DNA of 39,315 nucleotides from a phage. Positions 2,640 through 12,678 of the stretch are shown one piece after another. The translations under genes were made by a program, and so were the position numbers. The first letter of the stretch is position 1, and each line of letters begins with the position of its first letter. Below the pieces are notes generated by a model, which saw only the letters and a program-made list of their open reading frames with translations, did not search any database and was not told the DNA's origin. The stretch lies in sequence record PZ445456.1; one strand, 5' to 3'.

Positions 2640-3215
2640 ATCGGCGCTTAGTGCGCTCTTAGTGATTATGGTCGATATACATCTTCCCTATAATCACTGT
2701 AAGAAGTCAACTCTAAGAGTAACCCTTATGTACCACTCTATGGTCTACAGGGTCTCTTAGGGTCTCTCACGTAGTCTCACCTTATGATAGAGCCTCTGTG
2801 GTTAACCTTATGAGACTTGATGTACCCCTTTAAGAATCCTACAGAAAAATCTGAGAGGGTATCTCATAGTTCATACAAAGTGTTTCCCCCCCTATGGCCT
2901 CCTTCAGTTACCCCAAAGAGTCGGCCCCTATGGTAACTTTATGTTTACTTAATGTCAATCCTTATGTGTGACATTGGGTGAATCACTTGGTGTTACCACT
3001 AGATGTAGTGCTTAGTGTGACCTTATGACCACTATATGTAGTCCTCTCTGTGTCCCTATCTGTAAGTGACCATTGAGTTACTCCTTATGTCATCACCTTA
3101 TGTCATCTCCTTATGTCATCACCTAGAGTCTCTCCTTATGGCTGGCTATCCTTATGTTAACCTTCAGTCGGTGCCTTCAGTCGATAGACCTTATGTTGTC
3201 ACTTAAAGACCATAC
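2640..3215. repeat. Genome-terminus region with arrays of short direct repeats (11 CCTTATG copies plus CCTATGG and CCTTCAGTCG variants)
   Basis: CCTTATG at 2724, 2780, 2806, 2960, 3021, 3083, 3096, 3109, 3134, 3150, 3189; triple tandem CCTTATGTCATC(A/T) at 3083-3122; CCTTCAGTCG twice at 3161-3183. Non-coding; positionally equivalent to the T7 terminal repeat with flanking short-repeat arrays. True ends and repeat length cannot be read from sequence alone. Confidence 0.6.
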
Positions 3216-8422: not shown

Positions 8423-8445
8423 TAATACGACTCACTATTGGGAGA
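8423..8445 (+). promoter_or_regulatory. Phage RNAP promoter (phi1.1A-equivalent)
   Basis: TAATACGACTCACTATTGGGAGA, exact consensus; followed by a G9 run and an AT-rich CTTTAAG-repeat leader. Confidence 0.8.
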
Positions 8446-10771: not shown

Positions 10772-10794
10772 CTATACGACTCACTATGGAGGAA
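10772..10794 (+). promoter_or_regulatory. Variant phage promoter (phi1.5-like, degenerate)
   Basis: CTATACGACTCACTATGGAGGA; matches consensus -15..-2 but deviates at -17, -16 and -1; activity uncertain. Confidence 0.35.
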
Positions 10795-10801
10795 CACCCT
10801 C

Positions 10802-10882
10802 ATGTTATTTCTAATTGTCGCTGTCATTGTTGCCACATTTGCTCTCGTTGTCATTGACGACAATTGCTGGCCTGATTGCTAA
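10802..10882 (+). CDS. Micro-ORF, 26-aa hydrophobic peptide
   Basis: MLFLIVAVIVATFALVVIDDNCWPDC; stop overlaps the next promoter-like element; position of the T7 1.4/1.5 mini-genes. Could be non-coding. Confidence 0.2.
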   Translation: MLFLIVAVIVATFALVVIDDNCWPDC

Positions 10883-10902
10883 TACGACTCACATATGGAG
10901 GA
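10880..10902 (+). promoter_or_regulatory. Variant phage promoter (phi1.6-like)
   Basis: TAATACGACTCACATATGGAGGA; -17..-5 perfect, -4..-2 scrambled (ATA vs TAT). Confidence 0.35.
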
Positions 10903-10909
10903 CACAACT

Positions 10910-11173
10910 ATGTTAAGACTTCACTTCAATAAATCTAATGGCATCTTCTCTGCGCGTGGCTCTGACCGCTCGACCGTTCTGGCCTCTGAGAAACATGCAG
11001 TCATCCCTAAAGTGCTTGGCTCGACCATTGAGTTAGCACCTCGTGTTCACGCTGTAATCACCACTGGCTTATATAAAGAAGCGACCACTGGCTCCCGGCC
11101 TTTCATTCCGGTTCTCGTCACCCGTTTCCCTAAAGTCCGTCTGGTAATTGCTCGTATCAAGGAGGTGTTCTAA
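10910..11173 (+). CDS. Gene 1.6-like protein, 87 aa
   Basis: MLRLHFNKS...RSTVLASEK...PFIPVLVTRFPKVRLVIARIKEVF; resembles T7 gp1.6 as recalled (..VTRFPFVRLLLKRIKEVF); RBS GGAGGA upstream. Confidence 0.65.
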   Translation: MLRLHFNKSNGIFSARGSDRSTVLASEKHAVIPKVLGSTIELAPRVHAVITTGLYKEATTGSRPFIPVLVTRFPKVRLVIARIKEVF

Positions 11174-11616
11174 TGGCTGACCTTCCAAGAGATAAAATCA
11201 TTGAGATTCTTGTGGACAGTAATTCAGATAAGTCTGAGACAGCAACCTGTGTTTCAGGCTTGGAGTGTCCAGATATTAACTGTAAGCAATGTCCTCTGGA
11301 TAACACTGGTGTTACGATAGGGGATATACGAATGCTGGACACACGGGTCAAGCCGAATCCTTCGAAGCAACCACATGATATAGAGGGTGTTCGCAAGCCG
11401 AGCCACTATATGTTGTTTGACGACATTGAGGCTATCGAGGTGATTGCCCGTTCGATGACCCGTGAACAGTTCAAGGGTTACTGCTTAGGGAACATCCTTA
11501 AGTATCGCCTACGTGCTGGTAAGAAATCTGAACTGGCATTCTTAGAGAAGGACATGGCGAAAGCTGGGTTCTATGGTGAACTGTACGAAAAACATAAGGG
11601 CAAGTGCTATGCTTAA
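11173..11616 (+). CDS. Gene 1.7-like protein (DUF3310-type nucleotide kinase family), 147 aa
   Basis: C-terminal HYMLFDDIEAIEVIARSMT..FKGYCLGNILKYRLRAGKK recalls the gp1.7/DUF3310 family; N-terminal Cys cluster C-x7-C-x3-C-x2-C. Family assignment from memory only. Confidence 0.55.
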   Translation: MADLPRDKIIEILVDSNSDKSETATCVSGLECPDINCKQCPLDNTGVTIGDIRMLDTRVKPNPSKQPHDIEGVRKPSHYMLFDDIEAIEVIARSMTREQFKGYCLGNILKYRLRAGKKSELAFLEKDMAKAGFYGELYEKHKGKCYA

Positions 11617-11707
11617 ACCTAGTGAATGGTGTGAACGTATGTTCGAAAAGACGGGCAACGTTGACTACTTAGAGTTATATAATCAGTGGAAGGAGAGAGG
11701 TCAATGA
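11609..11707 (+). CDS. Gene 1.8-like micro-protein, 32 aa
   Basis: [32 protein letters not shown]; overlapping starts/stops couple it to flanking genes (ATGA with gene 2). Confidence 0.35.
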
Positions 11708-11895
11708 GCAACTTAAACAAAGGGTCACTTGTAAACGGTGACAAGAAGTTCTTCGCAACGGTCGAAGGCCAAGGCCAATCGTTCGAAGTACCTGTGTTCG
11801 CTGCGTCTCTTGAAGAGGCCAACGAGTTAGCTGAATGGCAGTATGTTCCGGCTGGCTTCGCAGTGACACGCATCCGTCCAGACCGAAAGGTTTAA
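11704..11895 (+). CDS. 2: Gene 2 protein, inhibitor of host RNA polymerase, 63 aa
   Basis: [57 protein letters not shown] matches T7 gp2 (MSNVNTGSL...[18 protein letters not shown]). Confidence 0.9.
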
Positions 11896-11915
11896 TAGGA
11901 CTCACTATTGGGAGA
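11893..11915 (+). promoter_or_regulatory. Phage RNAP promoter (phi2.5-equivalent)
   Basis: TAATAGGACTCACTATTGGGAGA; single mismatch at -12. Confidence 0.7.
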
Positions 11916-11964
11916 CACATCGTTTCCCGATTTTAACTTTCAGAAACTTTTAAGGAGAAACATC

Positions 11965-12678
11965 ATGGCTTTCAACAAACGTAAAGTATTCACTTCCGCT
12001 CGTGGCGTTGCTGAACCGTATTGCTATCTGGCTAAACCGGACTTCGGTAGCGGTGACTTCAAGAACGAACGTGGTGTCTACAAGGTGTCACTTACTGTAT
12101 CCAACGACGACCCTCGCTGTCAGAAAATGATTGACGAGATTGTCGAAGCCCATGAAGCGGACTATGCTGCTCGTCTCGAAGAGTACGAAGCGAACCCGCC
12201 GAAAGTTGTCAAGGGTAAGAAACCGCTGAAGCCGTATGTTGGCGACATGCCTTTCATGGATAACGAAGACGGAACCACTACGTTCAACTTCAAGTGCTAC
12301 GGTTCGTTCACTGACAAGAAGACTGGTGAGAATAAACCAATCGACTTGGCTATCGTGGACTCCAAGGGCAAGCGCATTCGTGGCGAACGTCCAGCTATCT
12401 CTGGTGGTTCTGAACTGAAAATCAAATACACCCTGTTCCCGTATGGCTGGTCTGCTGTGGCTGGTGCAAGCGTTAAGCTGCAACTGGATTCCGTGATGCT
12501 GATTAAGCTGGTCGAGTTCGGTGGTGGTGGTGGTGATGACGATTGGTCAGACGAAATCGAAGAAGACGGTTACGAAGCTGATGAAGCACAGACCCGTCAA
12601 CGTCCGCAGAACGACTCTGGCTGGGACGAAGAACCAGAAGAGGACGATGAAGATGAAGATGAAGACGGTGACTTCTAA
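11965..12678 (+). CDS. 2.5: Single-stranded DNA-binding protein with acidic C-terminal tail, 237 aa
   Basis: FTSARGVAEPYCYLAKPDFG, YKVSLTV..DDPRCQKMIDEIV, KKPLKPY.GDMPF.DNEDGTTTF.FKCY, AGASVKLQLDSVML, C-terminal DEDEDGDF match T7 gp2.5; internal ATG at 11965 with RBS AAGGAGA preferred over the upstream ORF start. Confidence 0.95.
   Translation: MAFNKRKVFTSARGVAEPYCYLAKPDFGSGDFKNERGVYKVSLTVSNDDPRCQKMIDEIVEAHEADYAARLEEYEANPPKVVKGKKPLKPYVGDMPFMDNEDGTTTFNFKCYGSFTDKKTGENKPIDLAIVDSKGKRIRGERPAISGGSELKIKYTLFPYGWSAVAGASVKLQLDSVMLIKLVEFGGGGGDDDWSDEIEEDGYEADEAQTRQRPQNDSGWDEEPEEDDEDEDEDGDF

Follow-up and report, generated by a model that had tools for sequence, protein, structure and literature searches.

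Does the small protein encoded at 11173..11616 of phage record PZ445456.1 carry a metal-binding module that is new to gp1.7 proteins, and what would such a module do? gp1.7 is an unusual kinase, described as catalytically active without metal (PMC7693777), and T7 gp1.7 is the only member for which dTMP/dGMP kinase activity without added divalent metal is known (cited in PMC11897194 and PMC7693777). A preliminary description of the locus, made from the sequence alone, had proposed a four-cysteine, metal-binding module of about 60 residues, fused to a DUF3310-like C-terminal region and not known from T7 gp1.7. Here, we report the sequence relationships, predicted structure, and variation of this N-terminal segment among T7-family phages.

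Genome and gene identity

The window, that is, the whole 39,315-nt stretch of PZ445456.1, is the complete genome of a phage in the T7 family (Studiervirinae) and, set against the standard T7 map, is circularly permuted. Its nearest genomes are those of Berlinvirus-type Escherichia/Salmonella phages (such as Carena, nasanit, and P483; 91 to 94% identity over 25 kb). Position 1 falls inside or at the terminase large-subunit gene (1-1761), with the early region next. In the interval separating the terminase gene from the early genes, CTCCTTATGTCATCACCT occurs three times in tandem with 13-nt spacing (3081-3124); the copies may belong to repeats of the genome ends or of the concatemer junction. 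No match was obtained when the genome was scanned against Rfam. A phage RNA polymerase promoter family (consensus ATACGACTCACTAWTGGGAGA) is present in 13 copies spanning 2297-36340 (e.g., at 8425, 9057, 10774, 10882, 11895, 23538, and 24531); it departs from the T7 consensus at the TATAGGGAGA end, which is TATTGGGAGA or TAATGGGAGA in PZ445456.1, and the promoter search found no T3-type promoter in the genome.

Two members of this family (10774-10797 and 10882-10905, + strand, as are all features of PZ445456.1 located below) lie 5' of genes 1.6 and 1.7 and match T7 phi1.5 and phi1.6 in position. The ORF of interest (11173..11616; 147 aa, ATG start) is preceded by the Shine-Dalgarno sequence AAGGAGGT (11159-11166), 6 nt before the ATG. 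The TAA stop of the gene 1.6 homologue (10895..11173) overlaps that ATG, and the ATG of the gene 1.8 homologue (11609..11707) overlaps the end of the ORF by 8 nt (Shine-Dalgarno sequence and gene 1.8 both read from the sequence); an overlapping gene 1.8 is likewise annotated in T7 and Carena. The gene order around the ORF, namely, ligase, 1.6 (BC10 family), 1.7, 1.8, gp2 (RNA polymerase inhibitor), gp2.5 SSB, and gene 3 (endonuclease I), is common to T7, Carena, and PZ445456.1.

The protein had been called gp1.7-like with a DUF3310-like C-terminal region, and both calls are borne out. PHROG 2585 ("nucleotide kinase") matched residues 6-147 (E = 7e-64) and also matched the N-terminal module alone (E = 8e-7); identity to T7 gp1.7 was 63% over the shared region. 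The DUF3310 domain (PF11753; residues 73-134, 11389..11574; helical) was found with an E value of 4.4e-22 and 78.3 bits (Pfam gathering cutoff, 24). With DUF3310 above threshold, likeness to T7 gp1.7 over the full length, and a position 3' of the class II promoters, the product is identified by homology as the orthologue of gene 1.7 in a Berlinvirus-like phage of the T7 family. Its best database match is a metagenomic protein, P0001 (90% identity over the whole protein); among named phages, Pectobacterium phages PcCB251 and PP74 have the closest proteins. A search of the phage collection found the gp1.7-type C-domain in 1221 phage records; the protein family is known, and the 147-aa protein adds a new allele to it.

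The four-cysteine cluster and its conservation

The cluster has the form C26-x5-C32-x4-C37-x2-C40-P41 (11248..11295; peptide CVSGLECPDINCKQCP, residues 26-41). The four N-terminal cysteines noted earlier are thus present, with a spacing other than the C-x7-C-x3-C-x2-C first given. Among + strand ORFs of at least 60 aa (Cys, 1.1% overall), this is the sole site with at least 4 Cys within 15 residues. Composition alone is only suggestive, because 104/2000 residue shuffles of the + strand ORF pseudo-proteome (~5%) yielded such a cluster somewhere. The cluster is accepted as real because all four cysteines are kept in the 120 best homologues, taken from a collection of 5.8 billion proteins.

In these homologues, the pattern C-x(3-6)-C-x4-C-x2-C was found in 120/120 proteins, followed by Pro in 119/120; cysteines that varied had been named beforehand as evidence against a module. 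The first spacing was x3 in 64 proteins, x5 in 50, x4 in 4, and x6 in 2. In an alignment of 55 sequences, N17, C32, C37, C40, and R53 were invariant, L13, P41, T48, and G50 were near-invariant, and the first Cys was present in every aligned homologue with a one-column shift. Median identity to the gp1.7 homologue in this alignment was ~32% for the N-terminal module versus ~91% for the C-domain. The four cysteines are therefore under strong selection, being kept within a fast-evolving segment.

In the phage collection, the module was detected in 423 phage records with a T7-type query and in 232 with a query from the 147-aa protein. It had no match in Pfam or NCBIfam by sequence and profile searches and none in the PDB, by single sequence or by profile. 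A phmmer search with the first 66 aa, run against 1.8 billion representatives, returned a single match, another gp1.7, and a module profile run against the 5.8-billion-protein set retrieved nothing but gp1.7 fragments, either truncated or frameshifted (52 to 93 aa). A small family, PHROG 14146, matches the Cys region of the gp1.7 homologue; as the module profile retrieved only such fragments, PHROG 14146 was probably built from gp1.7 fragments and not from an independent family. No relevant paper linking gp1.7 with zinc or cysteine was found in the searchable library, and the Cys module is apparently conserved yet undescribed.

Comparison with T7 gp1.7

T7 gp1.7 (NP_041967, 196 aa; NC_001604, 8166-8756) carries the cluster as C67-x3-C71-x4-C76-x2-C79-P80, contrary to the earlier suggestion that it has no such module. 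The T7 protein contains GCGILCSNVPCHLCP and reads ...MTEREQEMIIKLIDNNEGRPDDLNGCGILCSNVPCHLCPANNDQKITLGEIRAMD..., which aligns with ...DKIIEILVDSNSDKSETATCVSGLECPDINCKQCPLDNTGVTIGDIRMLD... of the 147-aa protein; the flanks IIKLIDNN...TLGEIRAMD (T7) align with IIEILVDSN...TIGDIRMLD (147-aa protein). The alignment runs from T7 Met42 onward, and by this alignment the module is homologous to T7 residues ~42-98. The two genes share their genomic position, and the DUF3310 C-domains are ~88% identical; the N-terminal modules agree in all four cysteines, the following Pro, and the flanking helices, but are only ~30% identical. Between the first two cysteines, T7 has x3 and the 147-aa protein x5; the linker is longer in T7, and T7 gp1.7 is extended at its N terminus by 41 residues, made up of a GLLDG leader and a CIACLEKDDRYPHTC cassette. 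Because T7 gp1.7 itself has the homologous cluster, the module is an ordinary feature of T7-family gp1.7 and not a new fusion.

The architecture of the 147-aa protein would be that of T7 gp1.7 translated from internal Met42, without the CxxC...HxC extension of T7. A strong internal Shine-Dalgarno sequence (AAGGAG) lies 7 nt 5' of the Met42 ATG in T7 gene 1.7 (L001, 775-795), and many homologues start exactly at this position (MTEREQE...). Both are consistent with an internally initiated short T7 form without the CCHC extension, and both fit the report by Tran et al. (JBC 2012) that T7 gene 1.7 gives two co-purifying polypeptides of similar kinase activity. T7 gp1.7 is further said there to be oligomeric (~12-mer) and to need no metal ion for catalysis.

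The gp1.7 proteins of PcCB251, PP74, and P0001 have the same architecture as the 147-aa protein (no N-terminal extension; module, linker, and DUF3310), and the modules nearest to its own are those of PcCB251 (75%) and PP74 (71%). PP74 gp1.7 differs in having C-x5-C-x5-C-x2-C and a PEAP-repeat linker. The flanks of gene 1.7 in PZ445456.1, in contrast, are nearer those of Escherichia/Salmonella Berlinvirus phages than those of the Pectobacterium phages PcCB251 and PP74.

Predicted structure

The full-length protein was modeled with AlphaFold2 (AF2) from the 55-sequence alignment (mean pLDDT, 73). Residues 1-58 (11173..11346) were predicted as a compact unit at pLDDT 76-87, with a helix (6-16), Cys loops holding short 3-10 turns (26-43), and a second helix (49-55). 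Folded alone, this segment gave a pLDDT of 79.6 and a pTM of 0.61, and BFVD models of homologues superposed on it with TM scores of 0.71 to 0.77. The separate N-terminal module of ~60 residues proposed at the outset is therefore supported by prediction, an unstructured segment having been named there as evidence against it. The linker (residues 59-72, 11347..11388) is predicted to be disordered, with low pLDDT and with length and sequence varying among homologues, and the DUF3310 part is helical in the model (85-94, 97-114, and 124-144). A Foldseek search of the full-length model against the PDB gave a best E value of 4.8.

Confidence was below 50 over residues 60-85, between the module and the helical core. 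This stretch (11350-11427) holds the near-invariant IEGV-x-x-PSHYMLF segment (IEGV-x-x-PSHY at residues 70-79), including the start of DUF3310, and so low a pLDDT in the monomer model is unusual for a stretch this conserved. Its folding may depend on oligomer assembly or on bound substrate, and on the model it is a candidate active-site or interface segment.

Module autonomy is also indicated by Pectobacterium phage Q19, which encodes the whole module as a separate ORF (orf13, 72 aa, annotated "gp1.7"; L003, 1201-1419; ...CNTGVNCSGISCDGCPLNHGQRTIGDVRK...). This stand-alone polypeptide has C-x5-C-x4-C-x2-C-P and a TIGDVR helix, and its BFVD model superposes on the module of the 147-aa protein with a TM score of 0.71. 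Phage Q19 is said to be without a nucleotide kinase gene (PMC7693777). The next ORF (orf14, 119 aa; L003, 1403-1762; 17-nt overlap with orf13) gave no Pfam match and an hhalign probability below 1% as a hidden DUF3310; it matches PHROGs 35442, 4521, and the C-terminal part of 7063 ("3'-phosphatase, 5'-polynucleotide kinase"), and its stretch ...GNALKALWRR... is loosely like the GNILKYRLR motif.

N-terminal cassette exchange

Comparison with Escherichia phage Carena (Berlinvirus), whose gp1.7 (123 aa) has near-identical flanking DNA and a 98.8% identical C-domain, places a swapped N-terminal cassette at 11180..11368, where ~190 nt are unalignable between near-identical flanks. There was no mismatch 5' of the ATG, one substitution at 11176, and a few substitutions from ~11369 (codon 66) onward. 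Carena gp1.7 is without the four-cysteine module and begins with CIACLEKDDRYPHTC followed by HTSECTIWNGAGVCSC. Most close relatives align by megablast to just 84% of 10800-12000, in two or three pieces.

A search with the C-domain only returned 120 proteins (75 to 98% identity, mostly 80 to 130 aa), and only 3 of the 114 that were new carried the four-cysteine module. About 10 different short Cys/His-rich N-terminal motifs, alone or combined, precede these 75 to 98% identical C-domains, as do some Cys-free leaders. The motifs include CxxC-x10-HxC, CDSTTYCEACNGDDRFPH, HYCxxC-x6-CxC, HxDHCRSVLSFGACDC, CNCERDYDTSDGHALDC, MPMESCPKCGTIHSGDC, and HYDCxxCGxYxCxGxC. At least 3 Cys were found before the PSHY motif in 212/235 proteins and none in 21/235; because these proteins combine two sets selected in different ways, the fractions should not be taken as population frequencies. 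In every case, the variable region stops immediately ahead of the conserved ...IEGV-x-x-PSHY... segment.

The gp1.7 N terminus is thus a recombination-swapped region, with the four-cysteine module as one of many interchangeable cassettes before the DUF3310 core. Across Studiervirinae, the N terminus is hypervariable, with sharply defined recombination boundaries at the start codon and just before IEGV-x-x-PSHY.

Proposed metal site and role of the module

In the reading that we favor (probability, about 0.6), residues 1-58 form an autonomous helix/Cys-loop/helix mini-domain whose four cysteines hold one structural Zn2+ and which is accessory, not catalytic. C26, C32, C37, and C40 would coordinate the ion, and the mini-domain would be followed by a variable linker (59-72) and by the highly conserved helical DUF3310 domain (73-134) common to all gp1.7-type proteins annotated as nucleotide kinase. 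A generic Zn(Cys)4 site is suggested by four close, invariant cysteines in a small unit that folds alone and is a stand-alone ORF in Q19, and from this we infer zinc as the ligand. The metal-binding function first proposed keeps its footing in so far as four invariant cysteines fit a metal site; it finds no counterpart in a known zinc-finger or Fe-S family. The module matched no described zinc-finger family by sequence or fold (Pfam, NCBIfam, and PDB), and its ligand spacing, which differs from the usual pair of CxxC knuckles, argues against zinc. Classical Cys4 zinc ribbons or knuckles and ferredoxin-type Fe-S motifs likewise have four close invariant cysteines in a small domain and a terminal CxxC-P, but the spacing here fits neither CxxC...CxxC nor CxxCxxCxxxCP, and there was no sequence, profile, or significant fold match.

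Alternatively, the module could be part of the kinase machinery, binding nucleotide or effector, so that DUF3310 alone would not be a dTMP/dGMP kinase. We regard this as unlikely, if the strongest of the competing accounts. Every gp1.7 form with measured kinase activity carries the module, including both active forms of T7 gp1.7 (reported by Tran et al., the Met42 start being backed by sequence), and the "nucleotide kinase" label of module-less homologues derives from homology. Besides the cysteines, N17, R53, T48, and G50 are invariant or nearly so, which is beyond the needs of a purely structural knot. However, ~60% or more of the records with a gp1.7-type C-domain have no detectable module (1221 versus 423 and 232), and near-identical C-domains (up to 98%) carry unrelated N termini or almost none. 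The module also evolves ~3 times faster than the core and is joined to it through a variable segment of low AF2 confidence. Because of this faster evolution, of near-identical cores without the module, and of the low-confidence, variable connection, we infer an accessory role for it (stability, oligomer contacts, or partner binding).

A further step down in probability is a [4Fe-4S] or [2Fe-2S] cluster on the four cysteines, in which case the module would be a part of the kinase that is sensitive to redox state or oxygen. Four ligands lie within 13 to 16 residues, zinc ribbons typically have two CxxC knuckles that this spacing does not provide, and the Pro after the last Cys (119/120) recalls ferredoxin-type motifs, which end ...C-P. 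One of 36 members gave a very weak match to the EndIII Fe-S family, which was not significant (E = 0.82). Set against this, the spacing C-x(3-6)-C-x4-C-x2-C-P misfits the ferredoxin-type 4Fe-4S pattern CxxCxxCxxxCP and gave no match to Fer4-type families, and the variable distance from the first Cys (3 to 6 residues) is easier to fit in a Zn site. Moreover, aerobic purification of T7 gp1.7 reportedly gave active enzyme, with no mention of a chromophore, which also speaks against Fe-S.

That the cysteines are a chance or nonfunctional cluster, unstructured or oxidized to disulfides and holding no metal, is very improbable. The ~5% of shuffles and the lack of a match to any known metal-binding family lean that way, but the four cysteines are invariant across modules that are otherwise 23 to 50% identical, and the fold prediction is moderately confident. 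Structural disulfides are disfavored because gp1.7 is cytoplasmic and made early in infection. Least probable of all, and refuted by the T7 gp1.7 alignment, is a novel fusion of the module onto gp1.7/DUF3310 that T7 lacks, as the preliminary description implied: the closest backbone relatives (Carena, JSS1, and others; flanks, 93 to 97% DNA identity) are indeed without the module, but T7, K1F, KP32, K11, K30, PP74, PcCB251, and several hundred phage records have it.

Implications

The cluster as first described matters little, the feature having been present in the T7 gp1.7 sequence all along. What remains is that an enzyme described as metal-independent and without homology to other kinases contains a strictly conserved Cys4 module. 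The most interesting feature is the diversity of cassettes before an invariant core, although its meaning is speculative. We tentatively entertain, at long odds, a wider view in which the Studiervirinae gp1.7 N terminus is a shuffled array of Cys/His-rich cassettes, unrelated to one another and probably zinc-knuckle-like, which a variable linker joins to a near-invariant DUF3310 core and which are diversified by host interaction or immune pressure, with gp1.7 serving as both kinase and host-interaction scaffold. T7 gp1.7 was recently reported to activate the Avs5 defense protein (PMC11897194); cassette diversity would then reflect either the binding of host targets or the evasion of sensors, Avs5 among them. 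N-terminal cassette variants on a near-invariant core make a natural panel for mapping the part of gp1.7 that Avs5 senses.
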